Below, in pieces: positions 1,804 through 42,304 of a stretch of DNA of 64,000 nt; position 1 is the stretch's first letter; every line of letters begins with the position of its first letter. Source of the DNA: Promethearchaeota archaeon (GTDB lineage Archaea > Asgardarchaeota > Lokiarchaeia > Sigyniarchaeales > SOKP01). A program made the position numbers and the translations under genes. The notes under the pieces are model-generated. The model worked only from the letters and a program-made list of their open reading frames with translations. It was not told the DNA's origin and did no database searches. The stretch spans positions 46,040 to 110,039 of the forward strand of contig JAHPZE010000014.1 of NCBI GenBank assembly GCA_019058365.1. The letters run 5' to 3'.

Positions 1804-3720
1804 TTAAATTTGACTTCTTATATGCTTAAAAATCATGTTAATTTCAATATCATTGTGGTACATATCAGGATTTATCAATTGATAGTAATTGTATTTAACA
1901 GGTTCTTCACCTTTCTCAACTAATAATTCTAGCTTTAGTGAGGGCATCCAAAATGTTTTATTGATATGCTGGTATTCAGCCATAACCATATAAAGAAAGT
2001 TCCCTACTTTTTTCGGGATAATTTTAGTTTTGATTTTTGTCATTTCATTAGCTTTTAACCTTTTAATGCTAGTAAATTCTAATTTGGATTCAAACGAATC
2101 AGACATAAAAAAATAGATCTTTATATCCTTGATTTCAGTCAAGTTAGGATTCTCGACCATAATCGTGATAATTTCTGGATGATTTAGCTTTAGTTTTTTA
2201 TTGTGTATTTTGATATCTATGAAAATAGGGTATGGTAAGATTTTTTCATTTAAATCAAAACTTAAATTAATGAGTTTTTGAAGATTGGGTTTTAAATTTA
2301 ATATAAATTGATTTTTTTGTTCTTCTAAAGAAAGAACTTGTTTACTCCTCGATTCTTCAAAACCTTGAAGCACACGATTAATATACTTTAAGATGTATTT
2401 ATCAAATTCTGAATGTTTAACAGATATAAAAGAAATTAATTTCTTGTAATATTCTGATTCAAGATTTTGAGGTAAAGGTTTCTCGAAAATATCCTTGATA
2501 AAATTTTTTAAAAGCTCATCTAAATGGATTAAGTCTTTATGTTCAATTTCAAATTTCTCCAAAATTTTCCCATTAAATTTGTCATCTTGTAAAAATTCAC
2601 TTAATAAATTTAGCACTTCAATAGCTTCAGAGTTATAGGCGTTAAAAGCCTTTGTTATCATAGCTTCTAATAAGTTATTTAATTTTGTAATATTTTTGTT
2701 CTTATAATTAATGAATTCTGCTCGGTAAGATTCTAAATATTTAATTAATTTACCAGAATGTAATTTTAATAGGCTTCTCTGATATTTTTGATATCTTTCC
2801 GATACATTTTTTATCCAATTACCAACACTATTTATTTTCTCAAGATTTTCTTCATTGTTGAATATTATATTTTCTTCTAAAGTATCTGTAGATAACAGTG
2901 GACAATCAATTTTTACTTTTTCCAATACTACACTTGTATTACGCTCCAATTGATATATTTTTTCTATTTGTGTGTACAAATTGAATTTCTGAAAATCATC
3001 TGCTTTGATTTTAATTAATTTCTCAAGTAAATCTTCTAACTTATCAGAATAATATTTAGGATTTCTATTTAGAATCCCTCTTAATATTGCAGCAAATTCA
3101 GAAAGAATTATGTAGATATCTTTTTTAACATAGATTTTAGTTCTGTTATTTTCTAGGTTTATGATATTACAAAAATTTACTACATTCTGATAATTTTTCT
3201 CAGCAAATTGATAGTAATTGGCACATTTTTCAAAATATAATGAATTTTTTGCCAAATAACTATAATATAATCCTAATAATGATTTATTAATAATATATGA
3301 AAGTTCTCTGAGTTCTTCATACTTTCTTTTGGTTTTATTATCTTTTATATAGGCTATTAAAAATTCCTCAACAATTATCTCAAAATTGCCTGCAGAACGA
3401 ATTGAATTGATTAATTTTAAAGGATTAATTTCTATATCATCTAGTTTAGTAATAATGAAATGCCTATATTCATTAAAATCAGAATTAAGACTATAAAAAT
3501 AAGAATCAATTAAAGATTTTCTTCTCTCAAGTTCCGAATTTTTGACTTTTTTTTCAGTTTTAAATGATGTAAGGTTTAGAATTTCAGTTAAATAATATTT
3601 GAGAGAATATAATGACTCCATATATAATGTTCTTGCCCCACAATAAGGACACTGAGCTGCAGATCCCTTTATAATGGGTAAACCACACCCACATTTCTTG
3701 CAAGGCATAAAGGATATCAT
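1804..3720 (-). CDS. Hypothetical protein: N-terminal Zn ribbon, long helical region, C-terminal Ig-like beta-sandwich
   Basis: CKKC...CPYC; C-terminal beta-strand pattern (IITIMVENP..DIKIY..LKANE..IIPKKVG). Confidence 0.55.
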   Translation of the reverse strand: MISFMPCKKCGCGLPIIKGSAAQCPYCGARTLYMESLYSLKYYLTEILNLTSFKTEKKVKNSELERRKSLIDSYFYSLNSDFNEYRHFIITKLDDIEINPLKLINSIRSAGNFEIIVEEFLIAYIKDNKTKRKYEELRELSYIINKSLLGLYYSYLAKNSLYFEKCANYYQFAEKNYQNVVNFCNIINLENNRTKIYVKKDIYIILSEFAAILRGILNRNPKYYSDKLEDLLEKLIKIKADDFQKFNLYTQIEKIYQLERNTSVVLEKVKIDCPLLSTDTLEENIIFNNEENLEKINSVGNWIKNVSERYQKYQRSLLKLHSGKLIKYLESYRAEFINYKNKNITKLNNLLEAMITKAFNAYNSEAIEVLNLLSEFLQDDKFNGKILEKFEIEHKDLIHLDELLKNFIKDIFEKPLPQNLESEYYKKLISFISVKHSEFDKYILKYINRVLQGFEESRSKQVLSLEEQKNQFILNLKPNLQKLINLSFDLNEKILPYPIFIDIKIHNKKLKLNHPEIITIMVENPNLTEIKDIKIYFFMSDSFESKLEFTSIKRLKANEMTKIKTKIIPKKVGNFLYMVMAEYQHINKTFWMPSLKLELLVEKGEEPVKYNYYQLINPDMYHNDIEINMIFKHIRSQI

Positions 3721-3914: not shown

Positions 3915-5687
3915 TTAATGAGTAAAATAACAGAAAAGATGGTTGTTTTCAAGATTTATGGGATTGACGAATCCATAACGTTCGAATTGAATCGTTTTAT
4001 TCATCGGTATTTTTAAAAGATTTATTTCTCCATTCCCTTTTGATAGTGTTCCATCTGGTTTTAAGATTGAGACCCTTACATTTTCATCTTTAGGTACCCA
4101 TTGAATAATTGGAAAATCTCGATCCAACTCCTTACTATAATAGGAAGCACCTATTTTTTTATTATTCAAATCAATAGACTCAATCTTGATATTCATTAAA
4201 TCTTTTAACCGAATCATTTGATCCTTTTGTAGGTTTTTTCCATCCATAAAAGCAATTAAAAGGTTCAGTTGATTGTTTATTGATATGCATTTTATTTTCC
4301 TTTTTCCTTTTTTAGGCGTTGTTGGATGTACGAGAGGTTCAGCAATGTATAACTTGTCAGGAATATTATCAATTGTAATTGAAAAGGGATTTTCAACATA
4401 AAAAAAACGGTCAGAGATTGCGTCTATTATATCTTGATTTTTTGAATATAACCAATTTACAGAAAATGTTATTCCTGATTGAGACATACCAAGTTCTAGT
4501 AATGTTTCTCTTAACGCTTCCGGTCTTATTCCACGCTTTTTGAGAGATTGTAAACTCCATGTCCTTGGATCTTCCCATCCTTCATAAATTCCATTTTGAA
4601 TATTATTTCTTGATTCGGTTTTGCTTAATTTCATATCAGCGAAATTGAGTCTTCCATAATATAATAACTCCGCTTTTTTCCAACCAAAATGGTCCCAAAT
4701 AAATTCTTCAATAATACCTTCTTTAACTAAATCTATACCTCTTAATATATGAGACGCACTTATTAAATAATCATCAATTGCCCAAGAATACTCTAGCATT
4801 GGCCATACTATATATTTATTACCCACTCTTGGATGTTCTGCCTCTGAAATTCTCATAATAATTTGGTCTCTTAAAGCTGGATCTTTTTGATCCATTCCTG
4901 TTTTTAGTCTTACTACAGCTTGACCTTCATGATATTCCTTGTTAAGCATAGCGTTCCATAGCTCTAAATTCTTTTCTTTTGATTGATTCCTATGTGGACA
5001 ATCATTTTTGTTTTTCTTATAATTTTCCCTAAATTCATCAGCGGAGCAAAAACAAACATAAGCCATATTATCTTTAATGAGTTTTTCACAGTATTCATAA
5101 AAAATTTCTAATCGATCGCTTTTATAATAAATATTGCTATAATTTACTCCTAACCAATCCAATCCTTCCTTAATTAAATTATAGGCTTCTGGTAATACGT
5201 ATTTAGCCTTAGGGCTTTCCCGTAAAGATTTTGGACTTCCGATGGTATCATCATAAAATAAAATAAGTTCACCATTATATCTTTTAACGTATTCATCATT
5301 TAGTACAATCATTCTTGCGTTCCCAACATGTAGCGCCCCACTTGGATAAGGAGCTAAACGCATTATTACTTTTTTAAACTTCGAGATGTTTGGTAGTTCT
5401 GGTAATTCCTTATCTTCCTCTATTTTTTCTTTTTTATCCAACGCGTGAGGATCTAACTGAAATAATTTTTCTTTCTGTTCCTTTATATTTAGATTTGAGA
5501 TTTCAGAAATGATACTATCCAATATAGGAATAATTGATTTCGCTTGAGAGCGCATATCGGGTCTTGTGGCCATAAGTTTTCCCATTATAGCTTTTTTATC
5601 TGGCTTACCATTAAATTTAACTGCGTTCTTCAAACCACTTAACCATAGAATCTTTCTTATTTCTTCATCTTTCATTAGTATCTTCAT
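3915..5687 (-). CDS. gltX: Glutamate--tRNA ligase (archaeal type)
   Basis: RLAPYPSGALHVGN (HIGH), KLSKT (KMSKS), GWEDPR, QFERYGF. Confidence 0.95.
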   Translation of the reverse strand: MKILMKDEEIRKILWLSGLKNAVKFNGKPDKKAIMGKLMATRPDMRSQAKSIIPILDSIISEISNLNIKEQKEKLFQLDPHALDKKEKIEEDKELPELPNISKFKKVIMRLAPYPSGALHVGNARMIVLNDEYVKRYNGELILFYDDTIGSPKSLRESPKAKYVLPEAYNLIKEGLDWLGVNYSNIYYKSDRLEIFYEYCEKLIKDNMAYVCFCSADEFRENYKKNKNDCPHRNQSKEKNLELWNAMLNKEYHEGQAVVRLKTGMDQKDPALRDQIIMRISEAEHPRVGNKYIVWPMLEYSWAIDDYLISASHILRGIDLVKEGIIEEFIWDHFGWKKAELLYYGRLNFADMKLSKTESRNNIQNGIYEGWEDPRTWSLQSLKKRGIRPEALRETLLELGMSQSGITFSVNWLYSKNQDIIDAISDRFFYVENPFSITIDNIPDKLYIAEPLVHPTTPKKGKRKIKCISINNQLNLLIAFMDGKNLQKDQMIRLKDLMNIKIESIDLNNKKIGASYYSKELDRDFPIIQWVPKDENVRVSILKPDGTLSKGNGEINLLKIPMNKTIQFERYGFVNPINLENNHLFCYFTH

Positions 5688-5700
5688 CTTATCAATTTTT

Positions 5701-6978
5701 TTAATTTTTCAATTCATCTATTTTGGCTTGCAATTCATGAATACCATTTCTTATTATGTTTTTTGCTATGAATGAAGATTCCTCTGCTTCTTTTTGCATT
5801 AATATCCTTGATTTTAAAGAGCATGCTTCTAAAAATGTGCTTTTGTTCTTTATACTTGAACCGATAATTATAACATCCAGAATATGTAAAGCTAATTGGA
5901 GTTTTCCTTGTTTATATAGCTTTTCCGCGTGAAAAAGATATTTTTTTTCATCATTTATTGCTAAAAACTCCTCTGCGATCTCATTAGATTTAGCGGGAAA
6001 GAGATCAGTTGGATTTCCCGTTGTATACCATCCATGAAAAAGCCTATAAACAGCATGTATAGCAAATCGATAACAACCATATGCCGGATTCAAATATTTG
6101 TGTTTTTTAAACTTTTCAGGATAAATTTCAAGCATCTCATGATAAATTTGTTCGAACCATTTTCCTTCATTTAATCTTTTTACAACTTCATCATAAACAA
6201 AATGCATTACTTCTGCTCTAATTGATAAAGCTTCTTGAACATTTTTTTTGCCTTCTATAAGTGGTCCATGACCAGGTGCTAAGAACTTTGCGTCTTTTTC
6301 TAACATTTTTTCCATAGCTATAGCCCATTGTTTAGGGTAGCGTTGTACTTTAAATGGGTTCCCTACATTAGGGAATGTGGGATTCGATACTAATTCCCCA
6401 GGAAATAAAACTTCTTTTTCAGGTAAAAACATCCATAAGCTATCATCTGTTTCTCCTTTATCGTGATAAAGCTCAAAAGAATAATTTCCTAATTTAAACT
6501 CATAATTGTTATTTCCATGAATTATTATTGTTGGGTTGAGTGTATCATGAGCAGAAACCCCCTCTTTTGGTATATTCCCTATTGAAGAAAATTGCTGATT
6601 ATTAATCCAATTATGATATTTGTCTAATTCTCTATACTTCTCAAATCTATTTAAAATGTTTTCATGTGCAATGATTTGAGGCATCTCCCATCCTTTATCG
6701 TTTACTTCTTTAATGATCGACGCATATCCAAAAGAATGATCAAAATGCCCATGAGAATAGATGATAAATCTTATTTGCTTATCTGAAAACTTTCGGATTT
6801 TATTGAATATACGACGATGAAATAATCTATTGGATAGATCAAAAACAACTAATCCTTCTTCAGTTTTTATCACACTAACATTGGCCCAAGCTCCAATAAG
6901 AAAACATGTATCATCTGCAAATGTCTTAGATGGAAAATTGCCGAACCATTGGTTCATAGCCTCTTCAGTTGAGCTCAT
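5701..6978 (-). CDS. MBL-fold hydrolase, alkyl sulfatase-like with dimerisation domain
   Basis: SHGHFDH, GETDD, PGHG motifs; GWYTTGNPTDLFP. Confidence 0.8.
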   Translation of the reverse strand: MSSTEEAMNQWFGNFPSKTFADDTCFLIGAWANVSVIKTEEGLVVFDLSNRLFHRRIFNKIRKFSDKQIRFIIYSHGHFDHSFGYASIIKEVNDKGWEMPQIIAHENILNRFEKYRELDKYHNWINNQQFSSIGNIPKEGVSAHDTLNPTIIIHGNNNYEFKLGNYSFELYHDKGETDDSLWMFLPEKEVLFPGELVSNPTFPNVGNPFKVQRYPKQWAIAMEKMLEKDAKFLAPGHGPLIEGKKNVQEALSIRAEVMHFVYDEVVKRLNEGKWFEQIYHEMLEIYPEKFKKHKYLNPAYGCYRFAIHAVYRLFHGWYTTGNPTDLFPAKSNEIAEEFLAINDEKKYLFHAEKLYKQGKLQLALHILDVIIIGSSIKNKSTFLEACSLKSRILMQKEAEESSFIAKNIIRNGIHELQAKIDELKN

Positions 6979-7001
6979 TATTTTTCTTGTAAATTTAACT
7001 T

Positions 7002-7967
7002 TTATGAATTGTAAAGATTTTGAATTATATCATTTGCTTCTTTCATTATTCGTTCAATTAATTCTTTCACTGAGGGTATATCGTGGATTAATCCTATCCC
7101 TTGACCAACAGATATGATACCCGCAGATAAATCACCTTGTTCATACATAAGCTTCGATTTTGCACCAGCAGCAGCATTAAATATCTCCATTTGGTCACTT
7201 TTTGAGTTTTCTAACTCAAGAACTAGTTTAGCGGCATCATTGTCCCAAACTCGATGAGTAGCATTAAGAGATCGCATAATAATGGTTGTATCATAGATAC
7301 TAGTATTTATTAAGGCTTTCTTTAAATTATCATGAATTGGACATTCTTGGGTGGTTAAAAGACGAGTACCTATTAATGCTGCCTGAGCTCCTAATGCTAA
7401 AACAGCAGCTACACCTCTTCCATCTGATATCCCCCCTCCGGCAACAACAGGTACCTCTAAAGCGTCAATAGTAGCAGGTGTTAATACTATAGTACCAATA
7501 TCATATCGCCCGGTAGCACCACCATTTTCCCAACCGACAACTTCTACAATATCAGCTCCTAATGAAGCCGCTTTTTTCGCATATCTTACACCTGCACATT
7601 TATGAATCCAAATTATATCATTCTTTTTGAATAAAGGAATGTATTTATCTGGAGCTTCATGTCCCGATGTTTCAATAATTTTAACCCCTTCTTCGATCAT
7701 AGCTTTAACTAGATCAATTTGTCTTATGGGTCTTAGCATAGGAAATAAATTTACATTTACAGCATAGGCTTTATCAGTTAGAGCTTGTAATTCATGGAGA
7801 GCTTCACGTAATGGTTCAGGTTTTCGATACATTACTGAGGCAAGAATTCCGAGTGCACCTGCATTTGAACATGCAGCAGCGAAAGAGGGATAACTTATAT
7901 TCATCATATTTCCACAAAAAATTGGATATTTTATACCCAACATTTCTGTCACTTTTGTTTTCAACAT
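7002..7967 (-). CDS. Nitronate monooxygenase / FabK-like flavin oxidoreductase
   Basis: LGIKYPI, SNAGALG, VAGGISDGRG, GTRL motifs. Confidence 0.85.
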   Translation of the reverse strand: MLKTKVTEMLGIKYPIFCGNMMNISYPSFAAACSNAGALGILASVMYRKPEPLREALHELQALTDKAYAVNVNLFPMLRPIRQIDLVKAMIEEGVKIIETSGHEAPDKYIPLFKKNDIIWIHKCAGVRYAKKAASLGADIVEVVGWENGGATGRYDIGTIVLTPATIDALEVPVVAGGGISDGRGVAAVLALGAQAALIGTRLLTTQECPIHDNLKKALINTSIYDTTIIMRSLNATHRVWDNDAAKLVLELENSKSDQMEIFNAAAGAKSKLMYEQGDLSAGIISVGQGIGLIHDIPSVKELIERIMKEANDIIQNLYNS

Positions 7968-8897: not shown

Positions 8898-11800
8898 ATG
8901 AAAAAGGAATTAAGAATCATGTCTTTATTGGGAATTTTTGCATTTCTATCTTTAACTATTTTCGTTTCAGATATTTTTAACGAATTCAATTTTAATACTA
9001 AAAATCGCTTAGAAAATTCAGGATTTTGGGATCTTACCAGTACTCCAATCCATATCAATGACTTAAATCCTAGCATTAATTGGAGTAGAACTGCTGCTGA
9101 TAATGAGTGGTGTAGTGGATCAGGAACTTGGAGTGATCCCTATCTTATTGAAAATATCACTATAGATGATTTATTTAGTGGAAGTTGTATATGGATTGAA
9201 AATTCTGAAGTCCCATTCATAATTAGAAATTGTACTTTTATAAATAGTGGAAGAGGCGCAGTTTGGCCTGATTCTGGAATAAGATTTAATAACGTCAGCA
9301 ATGGGCGTATAGAGAATAATACAATTTACTTAAATGAATTTTATGGACTTTCAATACTAGACGGGAGTAAGAATAATACTATTACAAAAAATAATATTAA
9401 TAATAATGATGATGGTGGATTGTATTTAGGGTATTCTAGTAATAATAATATTTTTAGTGATAATAATTTCAATTATAACTATTTTGGAGGTTTTTATATT
9501 TATCATTGTAATTTTAATAATTTTTCAGGAAATACCATTAAGCAAACCACGAGTGATCAAACTAGAGAGATAACAATTACTGGGCAAAACAATACTTTCT
9601 CAGGAAATATGTTTGAAAACTGTGGAATCTATCTTCAACCTTGGGATGAGCCATTAAGCGAATTATCTTCTCATTTGATTGATATAACAAATTTAGTTAA
9701 TGGGAAACCAATATATTATTATGCAAACAAAAGTTTTCTGATAAAGGATAATTTCACCAATGCGGGGCAAGTTATCTTAGTAAACTGTGAATTTTGTGAA
9801 ATATCAAGTCAAAATATATCTAATAGTGGACGTGGTATATTATTCTATTATAGTCATAATAATACTATTTTTAACAATAGTATTAGTAATTCTTTTGCTG
9901 AGGAAATTTCTGTATATAAATCTGATCAAAATAATATATCTCATAATTTAATTAGTAATATTGGGGATTCTATAGGCATTACTTTAAGCTATTCTAATAA
10001 AAATAATGTCTCATTAAATCAAATTTTTGATTGTAATACTGCTATAGATATAAATACGGGTTATTGGAATACAATAAGCTTTAATAATTTAACAGATAAT
10101 TACAGAGGTGTAGATATTTACCACGGAGAACTTACAGATATGAATAATACAATTAAAAAAAATATAATTTCAGATAATGATCAAGGTATCTATGTACAAA
10201 ACGCCAATACAAATGGAAATACAATATTTTTTAACTATTTTATCACAAATAGCATAAATGCATATGATAATGGAGATTATAATTATTGGGACAATGGATC
10301 GTTAGGAAATTACTGGGATGACTATGTGGGGAATGATTCTAATGATGACGGAATTGGTGAAACCCCATATATTGTATCAGGGGCAGGTGGGAATCAAGAT
10401 AATTTTCCTCTATGGGATGATGGTCATAATGGAAGTAAAATATTCATAGATGATGGTTCTTCAAATAATTGGAATTGGGCTAGTAAACATACTTGGTGTA
10501 CAGGTTCTGGAACATTGAAAGATCCCTATATAATAAAAAATTGTAATATCGATGGTAATAATTCGGGTAGTTGTATCTACATAAAGAATTCAAATGTATA
10601 TTTTAGAATTGAGAATTGTACTGTTTATAATTCACAGAGTGTAGATGGTATATATCATGCTGGCATCTTATTAGAGGATACATCTAAAGGAACAATAATA
10701 AATACTACCACTTCTTATAATAATGGGAATGGGATTTCCCTTGATGGATCTCATAATATTACAATTCAAGGATGTTTTATTAATGATAATATTAATTATG
10801 GAATTTCTCAGATTTGGAGTAGTTATAATATCACAATAATTAATAATACTATCAACAATAACAATAGGGGAATCTTTACCTCTTCTGCTGCCCAAGATGA
10901 TAAGATTATAGGAAATGTTTTTAAAAGCAATACTGAAGCTGCTATTTACTTTAACCCTGGTTCTTATAGTTTAATTGAAAGAAATAAAATTACAGGCAGT
11001 TTTAGGGGAATTCATTTATGGGGAAACAATAATACCATTTTATTTAATGATATCTATTCTAATTCATATGGAATTTACTTTAGTCCTGGAATGGATACAT
11101 GGAATAATACAATAGCTCATAATTCAATTTATAATTCATTTTCATATGCTATCTATTTAGAAGGCTCTAATGACCGATTTAACATTTTTTATAACAATTC
11201 ATTTACAGGAAATGGAAATAATGCTTATGATGATGGTTATGGTAATTATTGGGATAATGGTATAATTGGGAATTATTGGGATGATTATAGCGGGGAGGAT
11301 GCAAATGATGATGGTATTGGAGAAGATCCATACGTCATTACTGGATTAGCTTTAAGTCAAGATAATTTCCCTATTTGGGACGATGGTCATAATGGTAGTA
11401 AAATTGTTATTGATGATAGTGCATCTAATAACTGGGTTTGGGCTAAAACTCGAACATGGTGTTCAGGCTCGGGAACTTTTAATGATCCGTATATAATAAG
11501 AGAGTGTATAATTGATGGAAATAACTTAACCAGTTGTATCCAGATTAGTAATTCGATTGTATATTTTAGAATTGAAAATTGTAGCATTTTTAATTGTTCT
11601 TCAGGGCAAGCGGGGATCAAATTATTAAATGTGCTTAACGGACAATTATTAAATAGTAATTGTTCAAATAACATAGGCTATGGAATATATTTATCCGACA
11701 GTCATAATAATACTATTTCAGGAAATATCGCAAATTATAATGATGAATTTGGGATATTTCTAGAAGCAAGTGATAATAACACCCTTTCAGGAAACGATTT

Positions 11801-14800
11801 AAATGAAAATTTTTATGGTATTTATTTAGGATTGAGCAACAACAACACAATTTCAGAAAATTCTGCTAATAATAATGATTGGCAAGGAATCTATTTATCT
11901 TCTTCGAGTAATAATAATACGATTCTAAATAATAACGTAACCTGTAATAATGACAATGGAATATTTATAGATTCCAGTACTTATAATAAGCTATTTGGAA
12001 ATATTGCTGACAATAACGGATGGAATGGCTTACTTCTATGGAAAAGCATTGGAAATATAATTAGAGGAAATATAATAAGTTATAACGTTTTTGCCGGTGT
12101 TTATTTATATAGAAGTAATAATACTGAAGTTATAGAAAATAATTTCATTGGAAACTTATATAATATTTACGAAATAGGATGTGAAAATAATAATTTTGTT
12201 TTAAATTATTACGATGGAATACTTACTCCATTTGTTATAGATAATAATGGAGGTGGTGATCTTACATGGCTAGAAGCGGTTAATCTGTTTGTTTGGTGTA
12301 CAGGTTCAGGCAGCTACTCTGATCCATATATAATACAAAATTTAATTATCGATGGTCAAAATTCAAGTAGCTGTATAGAAATTAGAGATTCTGATGTGTA
12401 CTTTTACATCATTAATTGTTCATTCTATAATTCTGGTAATGGTTTATATAATGCAGGAATTGAACTTGCAAATGTAATTAATGGACAATTGATAACTAAT
12501 AATTGTTCAAATAATAATGGTATTGGAATTGGTTTATACCAGAGTCAAAATGTTACTATTGATGGAAACATAGTAAACAATAATGAGGAGTCTGGAATCT
12601 TTTTAGAAGTAAGTCATAATAATATTCTTTCGGCAAACACCTTAAATGAGAATTCTGATGGAATATATTTAGGTTTAAGTACCAACAACACTATTTCAGA
12701 AAATTCAGCTTTTAATAACGACCAAAGAGGGATTTATTTATCATCTTCATCCAATAATAATACAATTCTAAATAACAATTTTACCTATAACGGTCAAGAT
12801 GGAATATTTATATCTTATAGTTATAATAATACAATTATAGGAAATAATGCAGACTATAATGATTATGGAATTTCGGTATGGAATAGCAATAATAATACAA
12901 TCATAGGTAATACTTTAAGTAATAACGATTTTATCGGATTATGGTTATATAAAAGCAATAATACGGATGTCATATGCAACACATTCTTTGGGAACTCAAA
13001 TAAAAATATCAAAGAATCTGAAACTAAAAATAACTTTTTTAATTGGAATTATTTAGATGGAATTTTTTCTCCATTTATCATTGATGATGATGGAGGGGGA
13101 GATTTTACTTGGACAGAACTAAAATCTCTATTTTTTTGGTGTACGGGATCAGGTAATTATTTCGATCCGTATATAATAAATAACTTGATAATTAATGGCA
13201 AAAATTCAAGTAGCTGTATAGAGATTAGGGATTCTATGGTATTTTTTAAGATCGAAGGTTTTACGCTTTATAATTCCAGTTCAGGTTTATCTAATGCAGG
13301 AATTAAATTAACAAATGTAGTCAATGGACAATTGATAAACAATAACTGTTCTAATAATAACGGTAATGGTATACAATTATCCAACAATCAAAATGTTACT
13401 ATTGATGGAAACATAGTAAACAATAATGAGGAGTTTGGAATCTTTTTAGAAGTAAGTCATAATAACACTCTATCGGGAAACACTTTAGATGAGAATTATG
13501 GGGGAATTCTTTTAGTATCAAGCAGCAATAATACTATTTCAGAAAATTTTGCTTATAATAATGGCTGGCAGGGGTTCTACCTATCTTCCTCAAGCAATAA
13601 TAATATAATTTTAAATAATAACTTAACTTACAATAACGAGAATGGAATATTTGTAGATTCCAGTAATTATAATACAATTACAGGAAATATCGCAGATCAT
13701 AACAGTGAGAATGGGATATTTGTAGAGTCCAGTATTTATAATACAATTACAGGAAATATCGCAGATCATAACAGTGAGAATGGGATATTTGTAGAGTTCA
13801 GTAATTATAATACAATTACAGGAAATATCGCAGATCATAACGGTGGGAATGGGATATTTGTATGTGAATGCAATGATACTACAGTTGCAAGAAATAAAGC
13901 AAATTATAACACTTTTGCGGGATTGTATTTAATGAGCAGCAATAATACTGAAGTTATAGGTAATATTTTCATTGGAAACTTATATACTATCTCTGAAAGT
14001 GATGGTGTAAACAATAATTTTAACTGGAATGTTGAAGATGGCTTCACAGATCCAATTATTATAGATGATACTGGTATAGGAAATTTTACATGGGGTGAAA
14101 GTCTTAATTATTTAGCGTGGATTTATGGTTCTGGGACTTTAATTGATCCATATATAATTGAATTAATTACAATTGATGGTCTGAATTTAACTAGTTGCCT
14201 TACAATTAGAAATTCTAATGTTTATTTCAGGATACAAAATTGCACTTTTTATAATTCTGGCTATAATCTCTATGATGGGGGAATTAAACTAAATTCGACA
14301 TTAAATGGAGAATTGAAGAATAATAATTGCTCATTTAATAATGCAAATGGAATTATCTTAGATTCATGTCAATCTATTGTTATTACCGAGAATTCAATTA
14401 ATAACAATCAGAGATCTGGACTCGTATTAATTGATTGTAGTAATATTGATATCATTAATAATAAGGAGACAATCAACTTTAACGAGCTTTATGGTATTTA
14501 TTTATTTAATAGTCATTACAATGATATAACGAATAATACAATAAATAACAATGGAATAGGAATTTTTCTTAATCAGTCTAATTATAATTCCATTGATTGG
14601 AATACTCTATTAAATAATGGTCAAGCAATTGTAGACAATGGTGTAGGAAATATTATTGGTTTAAATAATGTTTTACCTGGTACGGTAAGTGAATTTCCTT
14701 TTGATATCTTAATTATAATTCTGATAATTGGATTAGTTGTTGTAGGAGTTACAGGAGCAACAATAGTAATAAAAAAGAAAAGGTCAATTCCAGCTAAGAA

Positions 14801-15518
14801 GGAAAAAGAATTAAGTGAGAAAAAGAAGGAGAAAATTAGAATTAAGCTTGAAGGAAAACTGGATTTTGTTGACTATCTTATAAGGGAAAGGAACATTAAA
14901 TTAGCTTATAAAAATCTAGGAAAAATTCAAGATACAGCGGATTTGTATGATTTCTTTGATATTTTTAATAAAGCGAATGAAAGAGTTGATCATTGTAAGG
15001 AGATTGAAGCAAGTATTTCTAAAGCAGTGATAGAAGAAGAAGTTTCTCGCCATGTTAAAGAAAGAGAAGTAAAAGAAGTAGTTATACCTCCACCTATAAT
15101 AAAGAAAGAGGAAGAAAAGAAGTACAATTTATTTATTAGTTATTCTACTGTTGATAGAGACTATTTTCAAATATCAAAGATTGTAGAAGAGCTTAAAAAG
15201 TATCCTAATATCAGCCAAATCTCATATTGGGAACGAGACAGTAAAGCAAACATTGTAGAGTTCATGGACGAGACGCTTGAAGTAAGTAATACCTTTCTAC
15301 TCTTTTGTAGCGAACATTCTGTAAATTCTAAAGCTGTAAAAGATGAATGGCAGGCAGCTTTCCAAATGAGAAAAGAAGGTTTGATAAAACTGATTCCCGT
15401 ATATGAAGAACAAAAGCACATTCCAAAAATATTATGGCATCTACTAAATGTCAAATATGATAAAGATAATTTTAAGAGCTTTATCGAAAATCTCTATAAG
15501 GAAATTATGAGAGAATAA
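8898..15518 (+). CDS. Single-pass membrane protein: six NosD/PbH1 right-handed beta-helix modules + TM helix + cytoplasmic TIR domain
   Basis: N-terminal hydrophobic signal; repeated GSGxxxDPY-capped modules with NNTIxxN/GIxL coils; TM ~aa1937-1958 followed by KKKR; C-terminal YNLFISYS...FLLFCSEHSVNSKAVKDEWQAA...LIPV (TIR_2 pattern). Confidence 0.85.
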   Translation: MKKELRIMSLLGIFAFLSLTIFVSDIFNEFNFNTKNRLENSGFWDLTSTPIHINDLNPSINWSRTAADNEWCSGSGTWSDPYLIENITIDDLFSGSCIWIENSEVPFIIRNCTFINSGRGAVWPDSGIRFNNVSNGRIENNTIYLNEFYGLSILDGSKNNTITKNNINNNDDGGLYLGYSSNNNIFSDNNFNYNYFGGFYIYHCNFNNFSGNTIKQTTSDQTREITITGQNNTFSGNMFENCGIYLQPWDEPLSELSSHLIDITNLVNGKPIYYYANKSFLIKDNFTNAGQVILVNCEFCEISSQNISNSGRGILFYYSHNNTIFNNSISNSFAEEISVYKSDQNNISHNLISNIGDSIGITLSYSNKNNVSLNQIFDCNTAIDINTGYWNTISFNNLTDNYRGVDIYHGELTDMNNTIKKNIISDNDQGIYVQNANTNGNTIFFNYFITNSINAYDNGDYNYWDNGSLGNYWDDYVGNDSNDDGIGETPYIVSGAGGNQDNFPLWDDGHNGSKIFIDDGSSNNWNWASKHTWCTGSGTLKDPYIIKNCNIDGNNSGSCIYIKNSNVYFRIENCTVYNSQSVDGIYHAGILLEDTSKGTIINTTTSYNNGNGISLDGSHNITIQGCFINDNINYGISQIWSSYNITIINNTINNNNRGIFTSSAAQDDKIIGNVFKSNTEAAIYFNPGSYSLIERNKITGSFRGIHLWGNNNTILFNDIYSNSYGIYFSPGMDTWNNTIAHNSIYNSFSYAIYLEGSNDRFNIFYNNSFTGNGNNAYDDGYGNYWDNGIIGNYWDDYSGEDANDDGIGEDPYVITGLALSQDNFPIWDDGHNGSKIVIDDSASNNWVWAKTRTWCSGSGTFNDPYIIRECIIDGNNLTSCIQISNSIVYFRIENCSIFNCSSGQAGIKLLNVLNGQLLNSNCSNNIGYGIYLSDSHNNTISGNIANYNDEFGIFLEASDNNTLSGNDLNENFYGIYLGLSNNNTISENSANNNDWQGIYLSSSSNNNTILNNNVTCNNDNGIFIDSSTYNKLFGNIADNNGWNGLLLWKSIGNIIRGNIISYNVFAGVYLYRSNNTEVIENNFIGNLYNIYEIGCENNNFVLNYYDGILTPFVIDNNGGGDLTWLEAVNLFVWCTGSGSYSDPYIIQNLIIDGQNSSSCIEIRDSDVYFYIINCSFYNSGNGLYNAGIELANVINGQLITNNCSNNNGIGIGLYQSQNVTIDGNIVNNNEESGIFLEVSHNNILSANTLNENSDGIYLGLSTNNTISENSAFNNDQRGIYLSSSSNNNTILNNNFTYNGQDGIFISYSYNNTIIGNNADYNDYGISVWNSNNNTIIGNTLSNNDFIGLWLYKSNNTDVICNTFFGNSNKNIKESETKNNFFNWNYLDGIFSPFIIDDDGGGDFTWTELKSLFFWCTGSGNYFDPYIINNLIINGKNSSSCIEIRDSMVFFKIEGFTLYNSSSGLSNAGIKLTNVVNGQLINNNCSNNNGNGIQLSNNQNVTIDGNIVNNNEEFGIFLEVSHNNTLSGNTLDENYGGILLVSSSNNTISENFAYNNGWQGFYLSSSSNNNIILNNNLTYNNENGIFVDSSNYNTITGNIADHNSENGIFVESSIYNTITGNIADHNSENGIFVEFSNYNTITGNIADHNGGNGIFVCECNDTTVARNKANYNTFAGLYLMSSNNTEVIGNIFIGNLYTISESDGVNNNFNWNVEDGFTDPIIIDDTGIGNFTWGESLNYLAWIYGSGTLIDPYIIELITIDGLNLTSCLTIRNSNVYFRIQNCTFYNSGYNLYDGGIKLNSTLNGELKNNNCSFNNANGIILDSCQSIVITENSINNNQRSGLVLIDCSNIDIINNKETINFNELYGIYLFNSHYNDITNNTINNNGIGIFLNQSNYNSIDWNTLLNNGQAIVDNGVGNIIGLNNVLPGTVSEFPFDILIIILIIGLVVVGVTGATIVIKKKRSIPAKKEKELSEKKKEKIRIKLEGKLDFVDYLIRERNIKLAYKNLGKIQDTADLYDFFDIFNKANERVDHCKEIEASISKAVIEEEVSRHVKEREVKEVVIPPPIIKKEEEKKYNLFISYSTVDRDYFQISKIVEELKKYPNISQISYWERDSKANIVEFMDETLEVSNTFLLFCSEHSVNSKAVKDEWQAAFQMRKEGLIKLIPVYEEQKHIPKILWHLLNVKYDKDNFKSFIENLYKEIMRE
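13638..13862 (+). repeat. Intragenic 69-bp (23-aa) tandem repeat, ~3.25 copies
   Basis: Units start at 13638, 13707, 13776 and 13845 (partial); near-identical DNA encoding ENGIFVxxSxYNTITGNIADHNS. Confidence 0.95.
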
Positions 15519-15571: not shown

Positions 15572-17218
15572 TTAGATTTTTTTTATCTCTGGAATCAGGA
15601 GTATAAAATTACTGCCTTTTGAATAATCCCCTTTAATTCTATCCTCAACCCATATTTTTCCATTATAACTCATAATGACTTTTTTCACAAGAGATAACCC
15701 TAAACCAATCCCTTTGAAATTGTGGTCTCTAATAGTTTCTCTTTGAAAGATTTTTTCTTTCCAAGTATCAATAATTCCTACACCATTATCTTTGAATTCC
15801 ATTTTAATGTAATCAGCATCTGATTTGTGGTCTCTCGTTATCTTAATATTAATTTCTGAAATTAAGCTTGAGGAATGTCTTATAGCATTAATAAGTATAT
15901 TCTCAAAAACATCCCTAATGAACTCATTTGCTTGAACGTATATTTGCTTACTAAATGAGTCGATTCTGATGTTTATTTCTTTATTTTTAAAAGTTAATTT
16001 AATATAATTCACTACATCATCTAAAATATTATAGATCTCAATTTGATTAAGAGATTTTTCATCAGTATCAATCTGAGAAATCTTACGAATATTAGAAACT
16101 AGTTTTCTTCCCCTAATAATCTGAGTTTCAATAAGATTCAAATAAGATCTTACCTCATTCGGATTATCAAGTATCATATTACAAAGTTCCATCCCTGATA
16201 GTAAATTCTGTAAAATGTTATTTATATCATGAGTAAAAAGATCCTTGTAGAAATCTACCCTCTGATAAGCTTTTCGATAATCATTTTCTGATTCTTTTAA
16301 TTCAGCGGTTCTTATATTTACCTTTTGCTTTAAAATAAAACTTATAAAAATAAATATTAAGACAAGACCAGCTGAGCTTAGAATTACAGGTAATACCCAT
16401 TCTGGGATAATTATCAAACTTTCTTGTTTCCCAAAGAAATATTTACTTAATAATTCATAATAGATAGATCCTGAATCTCTTTTTAAAAGAACTAAATGGG
16501 CATCAATCCTTTCAATTAAGTATTGACTTATACTTGAATTTTTAGGAAAGGCAAACTTTAGGCTGCACGGATTAAATATTATTGAAGTTTTATAGATATC
16601 ATAATCATCTGAATATAAAATTCCAAATAATCTATTGACCACTCCTGCATCAGCACTACCAGCATCTAAAGCCTCAAAAACATTTTGATAATTAGCATAT
16701 TCTACAAATGTACAGTTGATATTAAACCTCTTAGTAAGGTTCATTATCCCTTCTGAACCGATAGTATGAATACTTCCAGACATAACTGCTATTGTTTTAT
16801 TATGTAAATCAAAAAGTGATTCAATATTAGATCCTTCTTTTATATACACAACACCCCAATTTGTGAAAACTTCTTCTTGGTTAAAATCATAAATCTCTGC
16901 TCTTTCATTTGAGAAGGCAACATCGACCATAACATCTAATTCATTATTTTCTAATCGATCTAAACATTGAGTCCAGTTACCATCTACATATTCCAGTTCC
17001 CATCCTTCTTGTGTCGCTATATATTCTAAAAGATCGGGAAATAGCCCGATATGGTTTTTATTTTCATCTGTGTATACTTTAGGAGGGTTTTCATATGATC
17101 CTACGCGAATATGCATAGGGTCTCCAATAGATTTTTGAAAAAAAAGAGATATGAAAATTATTGAGATTGAACTTATGGAGAGGACAAACAGAAGAAAAAT
17201 ATTCCATTTTTTTAGTAT
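15572..17218 (-). CDS. Membrane sensor histidine kinase with extracellular SBP_bac_3-type ligand-binding domain; start probably upstream of the ATG at 17116
   Basis: IRVGSYENPP..GLFPDLL; TM WVLPVILSSAGLVLIFIFISFIL; H-box FTHDINN; ENILINAIRH, DNGVGI, GIGLGLS. The frame stays open upstream and encodes a signal-anchor helix. Confidence 0.85.
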   Translation of the reverse strand: MLKKWNIFLLFVLSISSISIIFISLFFQKSIGDPMHIRVGSYENPPKVYTDENKNHIGLFPDLLEYIATQEGWELEYVDGNWTQCLDRLENNELDVMVDVAFSNERAEIYDFNQEEVFTNWGVVYIKEGSNIESLFDLHNKTIAVMSGSIHTIGSEGIMNLTKRFNINCTFVEYANYQNVFEALDAGSADAGVVNRLFGILYSDDYDIYKTSIIFNPCSLKFAFPKNSSISQYLIERIDAHLVLLKRDSGSIYYELLSKYFFGKQESLIIIPEWVLPVILSSAGLVLIFIFISFILKQKVNIRTAELKESENDYRKAYQRVDFYKDLFTHDINNILQNLLSGMELCNMILDNPNEVRSYLNLIETQIIRGRKLVSNIRKISQIDTDEKSLNQIEIYNILDDVVNYIKLTFKNKEINIRIDSFSKQIYVQANEFIRDVFENILINAIRHSSSLISEINIKITRDHKSDADYIKMEFKDNGVGIIDTWKEKIFQRETIRDHNFKGIGLGLSLVKKVIMSYNGKIWVEDRIKGDYSKGSNFILLIPEIKKI

Positions 17219-39523: not shown

Positions 39524-40804
39524 TCATGATTTTTTCTTTTTTTTCCCCAAATTCCCAACTTTACGCATAAGCCATTCAGGCGAACCAACACCATCAAAAT
39601 ATTTCAACCAAACATACATAAGTAACCCTAGAAAGCCACAATATCCAACCCAAACAATAGGTAAAAAAATTATTGAAAACTCGCCAGTATATAAGGGAAG
39701 AAATGCATATTGAATTAGAAAGAGCGAGAGGCTTGTCTTTCCGTAAAATAAAACTAACCTTATGACATCATTCATTTTCTTTTTTATATCAATAATATAA
39801 AAGCATATTGCGATAAGTAAAAATGCAACACCTAAATTGTAGAACATATTTTGAGCGGTGCATCTAACCATAAAAATTGGCATTCCGTTAAAGTGAGCAT
39901 AATTTTGCTGATTAGCGATAGCTAATAACTCAATATGTAAATATTCTGATTTTACAATAACTCCTGGAGATGGTTGAGTTCCAGGAATTACTCTTGCCAA
40001 CCCAGTTTCCCAGATGTTGAAAGCAACTCCCCTCGGAACAATTAAGAATATTCCTAATAATACAAATACAATCCCATAAATGGAAAATATTCGAAATAAT
40101 TTATAATAAGCTTCTTTGGTCCCTTTTATCATTGCATCGTATAGAAACTCGCCAAATATTGTAGACATGAAACAAACTGCTAAGTATGGAAAAATTGGTA
40201 CTTGAGGAAGAGGAGAAGTTATAATAAAATGAAATATAATTACCAATAGGTTTCCTGCTTCTTTGCCCTCATATAGAATGTCACGAATCCAAGGAGAGAA
40301 GTAGATAATTAAAAGACCGATTACTGCTCTCCACTGCTTGCTAAATTTTATTGCATAATAAGAGATAATCTGAGAGAATCCAATAAACATGAGTATATTC
40401 CAACCCCATAAATTTGCAGGGAAAGGAACTGCATCACCTTCTGTTAATAAAGAGACTGGATTGAATAGCACTCCTATAATCATAATCACAACTCCTCTTG
40501 TCAAAATCCCGTTACGAATTGCTTTTTCTGACATCTTGCCTTTTTTTCTTTTATAACTGAAAACGACACTAAGTGCTGAAAGAAATACAAATAAAGAAGG
40601 CCCAAGAACATCTAAAAATGCAAAAACAAGTCCATATACATATTTCCAATCACGATCAAACCAACTGAGACCTGCATGAGCTAAAATTATCCAAACTATT
40701 GCAAATCCTTTGACGTAGTCTATTGAAGCAATACGTTTCGATGTATCATTTTTGATATCATTATTGAATTCTTCCTCTATTGTTGTAGACATTCTCGATC
40801 CCAC
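39524..40804 (-). CDS. HGSNAT/DUF1624-like membrane acyltransferase
   Basis: RIASIDYVKGFAIVWIILAH, PSLFVFLS, WNIL, PIFPY; multi-TM. Confidence 0.75.
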   Translation of the reverse strand: MGSRMSTTIEEEFNNDIKNDTSKRIASIDYVKGFAIVWIILAHAGLSWFDRDWKYVYGLVFAFLDVLGPSLFVFLSALSVVFSYKRKKGKMSEKAIRNGILTRGVVIMIIGVLFNPVSLLTEGDAVPFPANLWGWNILMFIGFSQIISYYAIKFSKQWRAVIGLLIIYFSPWIRDILYEGKEAGNLLVIIFHFIITSPLPQVPIFPYLAVCFMSTIFGEFLYDAMIKGTKEAYYKLFRIFSIYGIVFVLLGIFLIVPRGVAFNIWETGLARVIPGTQPSPGVIVKSEYLHIELLAIANQQNYAHFNGMPIFMVRCTAQNMFYNLGVAFLLIAICFYIIDIKKKMNDVIRLVLFYGKTSLSLFLIQYAFLPLYTGEFSIIFLPIVWVGYCGFLGLLMYVWLKYFDGVGSPEWLMRKVGNLGKKKKKS

Positions 40805-40969
40805 TCAATTTATCGAATAAATAAGAAACAAGATAATTTCCTAAGTAAAATTTTGGTATTATTATTATTATTGAACATTTATACTATTTAAAACCTTTTT
40901 GTTATCATTATAGTTAGTACAACTTAAGAAGGAAAAGCTCTATTTTTGAAAAACGATTTTATAAATCTG

Positions 40970-42262
40970 CTATATATTCTCTCTAACTTGATTTACATAA
41001 TATACTACTAAGCAGTAGTATAATAACATCAATAATATTAATCCTCCCGCGTTAAAAGGAAAAAATTGATAAGTTAGATAATAAATCCCCCAAAAAATGA
41101 CCATTAATATCGCTATTAAGTAATAAAGATATTTGAATAGTTTATAGTATTTGAAATTTTTATTGATAAGAATAAAAAAAATTAAAAATGGCGTCAAAAC
41201 TACAAGATGATGAGGCCAGGAATCAAAATATACGATTAACATTATTAGAATTCCTAATAAATAACCATTGATTAATTTTATCGGTTGGTTTGAGTGTTGA
41301 ATATAAAAATAATAAATTGGTATTAAGAATATCAAGGTGACAATTATAAAAATCAAAAACCCATTAATATCCACTCTAATTAAATTTATGAAAATTAAAA
41401 CAATTCTAGTAAGACTGAACGATGGATTAATTTCTATACCCCCTTCAGTAGTATAGGTATATTCTCCGGTAAGATTTACAGCAATAAAATCTGTAAACAT
41501 TTGTGGATATATTAAAAAGTAGATTCCTGAGATCAATAACAAAATAGTAGGTCCTAACAATCTTATCATAGTTGTTTTTAAATTAAAGAGTAATTTCTTT
41601 GTTTCCCTATTGTACTTTAAGACTATTAAAAATGGTAAAATTAAAATTAGTGTTGGTCTTATTGATAAACCTAATCCTATTAAGAATCCTCCTATCAGAT
41701 CATTTTTAATGCCCTCTTTCAAAAAAAATAATAGAGAAGAGAGAATGAAAAATGAAACTATAAGGTTAATTTGCCCTAAGAAATAATTCATAAATTGCGG
41801 TAACATTATAAGAAAAATAGCATATTGATGAAGAACAGATTCATTTTCAGCTTTATCAAAGGAATCCTTAAAAGTGTTTAATTTAGAGTAAAAATTTGAA
41901 TCATTACTTACGTTCTTGTAAATTTGAATGATTCTGTACATTAAATAAATTATTAAGATGTTAAGAAAGAAATTGAAAATCTGAAAAACAAAATAACCCA
42001 ATTTTAGTCCTAAAATTGAAAAAGGTGTAAAAAAGTAGGCTGAAATGGGTAAATATCTAAATGGAAATGGGGAAAGCGAAGAGTTATACAAATTAGGTAA
42101 ATTTTCTAACACATTCCAACCAGCGTGATAAAATGATAAATAATCATTTTCATCTATACTCATTAAAGGACTATCTAAAAAATAAAAGAATATGAATGTT
42201 AAGATTAAATAGAATCCATTGACAATACAAGCTATTAAAAAGAATACTCGAGTTTTGTACAT
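40970..42262 (-). CDS. GT87 (DUF2029) family GT-C glycosyltransferase
   Basis: NDYLSFYHAG, PFRYLP, LGQINLI, SWPHH; multi-TM. Confidence 0.75.
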   Translation of the reverse strand: MYKTRVFFLIACIVNGFYLILTFIFFYFLDSPLMSIDENDYLSFYHAGWNVLENLPNLYNSSLSPFPFRYLPISAYFFTPFSILGLKLGYFVFQIFNFFLNILIIYLMYRIIQIYKNVSNDSNFYSKLNTFKDSFDKAENESVLHQYAIFLIMLPQFMNYFLGQINLIVSFFILSSLLFFLKEGIKNDLIGGFLIGLGLSIRPTLILILPFLIVLKYNRETKKLLFNLKTTMIRLLGPTILLLISGIYFLIYPQMFTDFIAVNLTGEYTYTTEGGIEINPSFSLTRIVLIFINLIRVDINGFLIFIIVTLIFLIPIYYFYIQHSNQPIKLINGYLLGILIMLIVYFDSWPHHLVVLTPFLIFFILINKNFKYYKLFKYLYYLIAILMVIFWGIYYLTYQFFPFNAGGLILLMLLYYCLVVYYVNQVRENI

Positions 42263-42304
42263 TAGAAATCTTATCTTTTCTATTCAATAAACAATTTGAA
42301 AGAT

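Follow-up and report, generated by a model that had tools for sequence, protein, structure and literature searches.

A beta-helix, single-pass TIR protein with Toll-like layout in Lokiarchaeia: a candidate surface receptor and its family

Introduction

Can an archaeon possess a surface receptor with the layout of an animal Toll-like receptor (TLR), and would its TIR domain act as an enzyme or as a scaffold? This question is raised by one gene in a 64,000-nt stretch of a Promethearchaeota archaeon (Asgardarchaeota, Lokiarchaeia; assembly GCA_019058365.1, contig JAHPZE010000014.1, positions 46,040 to 110,039, forward strand), hereafter referred to as the window. A first-pass annotation, made from the letters alone, had proposed that the gene encodes an exported chain of beta-helices, a single transmembrane (TM) helix and, on the cytoplasmic side, a TIR domain, which together would sense something outside the cell and trigger NAD+-derived signalling. 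Here, sequence analysis, structure models and comparative genomics establish a type-I layout with a beta-helix ectodomain and a TIR fold that carries a near-invariant Glu. Our reading of the protein as a single-pass surface receptor that signals from outside to inside through an enzymatic TIR is less secure, and we give it a probability of about one half (0.52).

Results and discussion

Layout and integrity of the receptor gene

The gene is located on contig C33 of the 4.74-Mb host genome. Its reading frame is open throughout and encodes a protein of 2206 amino acids (P0001) with the following features (window coordinates):

8898..15518, plus strand: whole gene, type-I membrane protein of 2206 aa (P0001)
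8910..8966, plus strand: N-terminal hydrophobic segment, aa 5-23, with basic residues before it; putative export signal or anchor (hydropathy)
9033..10418, plus strand: beta-helix module 1, aa ~46-507, cap at 9108, GNYWDDY Asp-rich segment at its end
10419..11381, plus strand: beta-helix module 2, aa 508-828, cap at 10494, GNYWDDY Asp-rich segment at its end
11382..12218, plus strand: beta-helix module 3, aa 829-1107, cap at 11457
12219..13061, plus strand: beta-helix module 4, aa 1108-1388, cap at 12294
13062..14042, plus strand: beta-helix module 5, aa 1389-1715, cap at 13137
~13590-13910, plus strand: tandem 69-bp rung repeats in module 5, 84% identical
14043..14672, plus strand: membrane-proximal beta-helix module 6, aa 1716-1925, cap at 14118
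14694..14783, plus strand: single TM helix, aa ~1933-1958, with a small-residue face G-x-x-x-x-G-x-x-G-A, then KKKR
14805..15011, plus strand: cytoplasmic helical linker repeat, aa 1970-2038
15123..15518, plus strand: TIR domain, aa ~2076-2206
15345..15347, plus strand: codon for E2150, the Glu that occupies the position catalytic in NAD+-cleaving TIRs

Topology was deduced from hydropathy and the positive-inside rule. Only two hydrophobic segments are present, one at aa 5-23 and one at aa ~1933-1958 that is followed by KKKR at position 1959, in agreement with the annotated N-terminal segment and single TM helix. The ectodomain is rich in Asn (19%) and has a net charge of about -120. Among 281 fetched proteins with a TIR of this family, 115 have the same ectodomain-TM-TIR layout, and Lys and Arg are more frequent after the TM helix than before it in 112 of these 115. 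Because of this charge bias, it is very likely that the C-terminus of P0001 is predicted correctly as cytoplasmic, whether or not the N-terminal segment is cleaved. N-glycosylation sequons were also considered as a test of topology and rejected, as their number (66, compared with a mean of 57.6 in shuffled sequences) is not above what the composition gives. The TLR-like order of parts was borne out by hydropathy, Pfam, AlphaFold2 (AF2) modelling and the positive-inside charges.

The first-pass annotation had allowed for an assembly chimera. The gene is indeed repetitive and no single public contig covers it entirely; on the other hand, its internal DNA repeats are at most 85% identical, and public contigs tile nearly the whole gene with zero differences and even depth (the best run may be the source of the assembly). 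One of these contigs bridges module 6, the TM helix and the TIR domain. NosD and TIR_2 domains are combined in 25 other long proteins, and the same layout recurs in more than 100 independent proteins, so the probability of a chimera or of mis-joined repeats is very low. In a low-depth contig from a different sample, 138 nt of the 69-bp rung repeats in module 5 are missing, and the rung number of this module may be variable or collapsed.

TIR domain

Pfam assigned aa 2079-2184 to TIR_2 (1.6e-13), with a weaker match to ThsB_TIR (1.8e-4), and the AF2 model of the C-terminus adopts a TIR fold with a mean confidence (pLDDT) of 92, as annotated. The best fold match is the TIR of Cat1 (Z 14.8, root-mean-square deviation 1.8 Å, 117 aligned residues), tied with MyD88 (14.3), Hydra TRR-2 (14.2), RPS4 (14.2) and C. 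elegans TIR-1 (14.0); SARM1 gave a Z of 13.1. The best match of the single sequence in the Protein Data Bank (PDB) is ThsB 9uv0 (E 0.012), in which the helix around the Glu aligns residue for residue. In searches with the family profile, E-values were 3.5e-8 for a TIR-TPR protein from bacteria, 1e-4 for Cat1 and 0.004 for a plant TIR, compared with 0.2 for TLR2 and 0.84 for Hydra TRR-2 among animal TIRs. PADLOC returned TIR-NLR, bSEFIR and ThsB models.

The proposed catalytic-position Glu could be placed precisely: E2150, within SKAVKDEW, aligns with the Glu of ThsB 9uv0 and of plant and Cat1 TIRs. In an alignment of 224 family TIRs, E2150 is conserved in 99%, S2081 in 97% and Y2082 in 98% of the sequences, and the set F2079, S2081, Y2082, D2086, W2111, C2137, S2144, W2151, P2167 and P2176 ranges from 92 to 100%. 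The same alignment contains neither Box 2 (RDxxPG) nor Box 3 (FW), which mark the TIRs of TLRs, IL-1R and MyD88 and are typically absent in prokaryotes (PMC7075850). Instead, the BB-loop consensus is W-E-x-D-S-x-x-N-I, with no Pro, and the last helix is without FW.

Beta-helix ectodomain

Pfam recognised NosD (1.2e-139) and Beta_helix (4.6e-135) in 13 stretches each of P0001, and no ectodomain of the leucine-rich repeat (LRR) type was found. The six W-x-x-GSG-x-x-x-DPY caps occur exactly where they had been annotated (nt 9108, 10494, 11457, 12294, 13137 and 14118). Module 6 was modelled by AF2 as a right-handed beta-helix (pLDDT 94), and via this model alginate lyases and epimerases, tailspikes and NosD were matched with Z 20-22 (root-mean-square deviation 1.7-2.7 Å, ~185-190 aligned residues); sequence searches gave NosD 7o0y (3.6e-17) and AlgG (2e-7). 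Module 4 is 49-57% identical to modules 3 and 5 in pairwise comparison, which implies recent duplication. Module 6 is the best-conserved module, with 75-85% identity in several close relatives, and the distal modules diverge.

Conservation within the modules is concentrated on the W, C, D and Y of the cap and on Asn, Gly and Ile ladder residues. Only R1771, D1793 and K1797 reach 62-70% outside these positions, and no obvious active site could be recognised among the conserved residues of the module alignments. The capped module is present in 15 proteins of the host genome, 13 of which end just past the TM helix and have no cytoplasmic tail. It is a generic surface building block of Lokiarchaeia, to whose anchor the TIR was added, and it may serve as stalk or coat rather than as sensor.

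Variable ectodomain at a fixed locus

The P0001 locus is syntenic in five other genomes. For one orthologue (L006), identity is 92-93% in the DNA of the flanks and 97% in the protein sequence of the TIR, compared with only 31-53% at the amino acid level for segments of the ectodomain, which has two modules instead of six. The supported clade of the 12 closest TIRs contains proteins with two to six modules, some of them partial. Judged from these sequences, a variable ectodomain is mounted on a conserved TM-linker-TIR unit at a fixed locus. Such a pattern is that of a polymorphic receptor or a surface antigen, and ligand sensing and escape from virus binding are not told apart by it. In a further syntenic orthologue (L013 9001-9410), the reading frame stops ~50 residues into the TIR, and this copy is either broken or mis-assembled.

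Distribution of the family and exchange of inputs

Five more TIRs of the P0001 kind are encoded in the host genome, in the following paralogues:

Venus flytrap-FN3-PKD-beta-helix-TM-TIR
LVIVD propeller-TM-TIR with a C-terminal extension
4TM-helical repeats-TIR (five copies of the linker repeat, compared with one in P0001)
3TM-TIR
soluble LRR-TIR

The family profile matched 115 of 400 genomes of the phylum, with up to 10 or more matches per genome. Approximately 103 of the 115 belong to the host class (Lokiarchaeia-type); outside it, ~11-12 of ~240 genomes match, one of them strongly. Even within the host genus presence is patchy (30 of 53 genomes), and tandem arrays contain up to five TIR genes. 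All named relatives are from Asgard archaea, mostly labelled Promethearchaeota or Lokiarchaeota, with single records that carry the labels Thor-, Odin-, Hermod- and Hodarchaeota. The viral contigs searched yielded no relative, the plasmids searched contained only two weak TIRs (28-30% identity), and an atlas search with the orthologue P0027 gave no usable match.

The inputs joined to this TIR clade are diverse: beta-helices, Venus flytrap (Peripla_BP_6) and SBP_bac_5 domains, LVIVD, WD40 and FG-GAP propellers, PKD, FN3 and Ig domains, 3-4-TM units, SPFH, LRR, TPR and small GTPase domains. Solute-binding ectodomains of the Venus flytrap and SBP_bac_5 types would make no sense on a TIR other than as sensors. 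In a quick maximum-likelihood tree of 106 TIRs (128 columns, many forks open), 27 changes of architecture were counted against a minimum of 9; architecture labels cluster, yet several types recur on separate starred branches. These sequence comparisons thus reveal one TIR clade joined to interchangeable ectodomains. The earlier suggestion that beta-helices stand in place of LRRs is too narrow for the family, which uses many ectodomain types.

Several variants of the family were noticed in addition. A WD40-TM-TIR protein with a 230-aa tail (L080 1-2038; L079 2864-5242) is a distant member, one copy of which is labelled Candidatus Hodarchaeota and lies on a 4-kb contig of a fragmented metagenome-assembled genome (MAG), whose assignment to this lineage is tentative. 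Some members have a Swt1-like HEPN match between TM and TIR (L046 6099-9794, minus strand; P0165; E 0.0013 and 7.6e-5), possibly a second effector domain. Standalone TIR frames of 145 aa also occur (L009). The soluble LRR-TIR-coiled-coil gene (L005 2748-4352, plus strand) is directly upstream of a fused restriction-modification gene (4476-7007, plus strand).

A candidate reader of the TIR product

P0240, a protein with RelA_SpoT (8.8e-10), TPR, LSDAT_prok SLOG and C-terminal domains, is a candidate partner of the family TIRs. Its gene (L002 9613-12183, plus strand; G000:C53:31612-34182) adjoins the 4TM-TIR paralogue and not the P0001 gene. The SLOG family matched all 11 aligned orthologues. 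There are 15 close orthologues (48-100% identical), all in genomes that have the core TIR clade, and in 11 genomes a family TIR gene is within ~3 kb of the orthologue, the lengths of these TIR proteins being very different. Within the host genus, 12 of 20 core-TIR genomes and none of 34 others contain a P0240 orthologue (Fisher p 4e-7, a value that is overstated since related genomes are not independent of each other and linked genes disappear jointly); two of the 34 keep only broken remnants. Moreover, in P0174 (L078 3-1178, plus strand) a SLOG region 41% identical to that of P0240 is fused directly to a core-clade TIR. In type I Thoeris, SLOG binds TIR-made 3'cADPR (10.64898/2025.12.03.692087). 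The linked and once-fused SLOG protein gives independent support to the idea of NAD+-derived signalling put forward in the first-pass annotation. The alignment of P0240-type SLOG had no meaningful match among PDB sequences, and a search of the host genome for STALD (the SLOG family of ThsA) gave no match, which is uninformative as the profile matched nothing anywhere.

Two other candidates were rejected. Three SIR2-TPR proteins of 790-951 aa are encoded in the host genome (L051 5219-7591, L052 4640-7495 and L053 5610-8039); they are not linked to TIR genes, and may be further NAD+-consuming sensors. A gene for a soluble, single-copy protein of 526 aa with a central coiled coil and no Pfam match (L044 8566-10146, plus strand; G000:C53:18926-20503) lies beside TIR genes in 8 loci. 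It is near-universal (111 of 134 genomes of the taxonomic family, many of them TIR-less) and is taken as the landmark of an insertion hotspot that holds TIR receptor arrays.

Comparison with known TIR and beta-helix systems

P0001 resembles the Toll, TLR and IL-1 receptors of animals (e.g., Hydra TRR-2, PDB 4w8h) in having a putative export signal, an extended ectodomain, one TM helix and a cytoplasmic TIR, and also in TIR fold and in belonging to a multigene family with variable ectodomains. However, family ectodomains are of beta-helix or solute-binding types, whereas those of TLRs are LRR or Ig; Box 2 and Box 3 are missing, sequence affinity is not seen, most members have a helical linker of ~110-280 aa, and the family TIR is probably an enzyme, unlike the scaffold TIRs of TLRs. 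P0001 is thus TLR-like in layout and is not a TLR by LRR, Box 2 or Box 3.

With Thoeris, the family shares a prokaryote-type TIR with the catalytic-position Glu and the association of several TIRs with one SLOG-containing partner (Thoeris effectors being SIR2-SLOG, Macro and TPR proteins). On the other hand, the Thoeris sensor ThsB is small and soluble and shares an operon with its effector, whereas P0001 is a membrane protein that carries its TIR on a 1900-aa extracellular domain, its gene stands alone, and the candidate partner is RelA/SpoT-TPR-SLOG rather than SIR2-SLOG and is encoded on another contig beside a paralogue. The three SIR2 proteins of the host genome are also of a different type (SIR2-TPR). 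The chemistry may be Thoeris-like, but the system is not a member of Thoeris. Cat1, SARM1, plant TIR-NLRs, TIR-STING and TIR-SAVED have the same fold, the catalytic-position Glu and a sensor fused to TIR; their sensors are cytoplasmic, whereas the input of the present family comes across the membrane. Finally, the ectodomain shares a right-handed parallel beta-helix with N-terminal cap with NosD/CASH proteins (NosD, alginate epimerases and lyases, tailspikes), but differs in its six short capped tandem modules, in the absence of evident conserved catalytic residues and in the fusion to TM-TIR.

Proposed mechanism and alternative explanations

We propose, as the simplest reading, that the long acidic ectodomain would reach past the cell surface and bind a surface of repetitive nature, for instance a glycan carried by a partner cell, a virion or a particle, and that such multivalent binding would cluster receptors and allow the TIRs to self-associate; each of these two steps seems slightly more plausible than its opposite. 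TIR NADases need self-association to form the active site and are off when held apart (PMC11204291). Once assembled, the TIR would quite probably cleave NAD+ via E2150. Somewhat short of an even chance is the last step, in which the product would be an ADP-ribose (ADPR)-type signal that is read in trans by the RelA/SpoT-TPR-SLOG protein from the other contig, rather than a bulk loss of NAD+. The more general proposal, in which Lokiarchaeia would have independently built outside-in TIR receptors from swappable and fast-changing ectodomains, one NAD+-cleaving TIR clade and a RelA/SpoT-TPR-SLOG reader, is tentative. The likeness to TLRs is probably convergent, a prokaryote-type TIR having been joined to C-terminal anchors that ordinary surface proteins of Loki archaea possess.

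Several observations weigh against an outside-in receptor with enzymatic output. The P0001 gene lies among housekeeping genes, and no effector adjoins it. The Glu is present in more than 70% of all TIRs, including the non-enzymatic ones of TLR1/2/6/10 (PMC7075850), and is therefore necessary, not sufficient, for catalysis. Four residues before it, the family has Ala or Ser where many NADase TIRs have Trp (ThsB 9uv0 likewise has Ala). This Trp favours ADPR cyclisation in some bacterial TIRs, and owing to its replacement the product of the family TIR is not predictable. Since most capped-module proteins are tail-less, the module need not sense. With regard to the reader, the P0174 fusion comes from a single partial contig of a metagenome and its SLOG motif is worn, SLOG paralogues of ~36% identity occur in genomes that have no family TIR (G181, G203 and G214), most family-bearing genomes of other genera have no P0240 orthologue, and the synthetase motifs of P0240 are partly changed. 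Its linkage to TIR genes could also be hitchhiking in one island.

Some of these points would suit a tethered guard or damage sensor, in which the ectodomain is an ordinary coat or adhesin with no ligand specificity and the TIR responds to a disturbance of the surface protein (virion attachment, shedding or membrane stress), or to a trigger from inside, by depleting NAD+ and so stopping infection. The tail-less module proteins, the module alignments with no conserved catalytic or binding residues past cap and structural positions, and the LRR-TIR paralogue next to a restriction-modification gene are all in line with it, as are the patchy presence in the genus and the tandem arrays, which are typical of defence genes. 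The best structural match points the same way, Cat1 being an NAD+-depleting TIR effector. However, the Venus flytrap and SBP5 ectodomains joined to this clade indicate sensing of small molecules, the stable housekeeping setting of P0001 is not that of a defence island, and a SLOG partner implies that a signal is made, not that NAD+ is depleted in bulk; we consider the guard unlikely, yet worth keeping in mind. Quite improbable, in our view, is a non-enzymatic scaffold as in animal TLRs, in which the Glu would be structural and the TIR would nucleate assemblies with soluble LRR-TIR, TIR-only or 3-4-TM TIR paralogues. A single genome does contain both soluble and multi-TM members of the clade, the Glu is kept in non-enzymatic TLR TIRs, and the fold search ties MyD88 and Hydra TRR-2 with enzymatic TIRs, but the scaffolding motifs of Box 2 and Box 3 are absent, the paralogues showed neither a death-domain nor a kinase adaptor, and an enzymatic TIR accounts more readily for the association with a nucleotide-binding SLOG protein.

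Common descent with animal Toll/IL-1 receptors, from a receptor-TIR of an Asgard ancestor whose ectodomain was later replaced by LRR or Ig, would account for the same domain order and for the fact that all named relatives are Asgard, including the single Thor-, Odin-, Hermod- and Hodarchaeota-labelled records. Against this, the family profile ranks bacterial TIR-TPR, Cat1 and plant TIRs over TLR2 and Hydra TRR-2, the TLR boxes are absent, strong matches are nearly confined to the host class, and the Hodarchaeota-labelled record is the 4-kb contig of a fragmented MAG. Descent of this kind is thus highly improbable. Since LRRs, Box 2 and Box 3 are all absent from P0001 and its TIR is not especially close to those of animals, convergence with TLRs is the likelier explanation. 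The family is real and a variant of known TIR signalling, and it is most likely convergent with TLRs.

Novelty and implications

In the openly searchable literature (Asgard or Loki with TIR or Toll, prokaryotic TIR with TM, and SLOG/RelA/TPR; subscription papers not covered), no description of the family was found. TIR receptors are not discussed in the available portion of the main text of the 2026 Asgard defence-gene survey (PMC13700489), nor is the family in the available portion of a preprint on Asgard solenoids (10.64898/2026.10.28.762692), and database names of the members are only NosD- or TIR-domain proteins. According to a survey of 2024, bacterial TIR systems seem to lack features of the TLR type (PMC11350192). 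Prokaryotic TIR systems that have been characterised sense inside the cell, whereas the Asgard family appears to comprise ectodomain-shuffling TM-TIR receptors. A prokaryote can thus evolve the layout of an animal innate-immunity receptor, the output being probably enzymatic and not that of a scaffold; the origin of TLRs is not located by the present evidence. If the proposed mechanism is true, this would be a prokaryotic pathway from the cell surface to a second messenger, combining Toll-like layout with Thoeris-like chemistry. The family itself gives a direct way to study how partners, viruses or solutes might be sensed by syntrophic Asgard cells.

Neighbouring genes and other observations

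The P0001 gene is flanked by genes for a HAD hydrolase and a histidine kinase. The latter (15572-17116, minus strand) has an SBP_bac_3 sensor and converges on the receptor gene. Its frame runs upstream into a hydrophobic N-terminus that matches a 548-aa orthologue, and the gene probably starts ~100 nt further upstream, at a non-standard codon. The kinase is found at the receptor locus in only two related loci (L006 and L007).

Elsewhere in the host genome (G000), C7:2907-6920 and C16:161268-165308 encode type-I membrane proteins with long ectodomains and cytoplasmic tails of 230-260 aa that are roadblock/longin-like by eye, and may represent further receptor-like classes. An unrelated TIR_2 gene (L054 ~5620-6600, minus strand; G000:C39:139264-139545) is interrupted by one TAG. 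Within the window, a 638-aa open reading frame at 1804-3720 (minus strand) had no Pfam match, and two HGSNAT/acyltransferase-3 membrane genes surround a GT87 glycosyltransferase gene at 39524-43672 (minus strand), possibly forming a cluster for surface-glycan modification.

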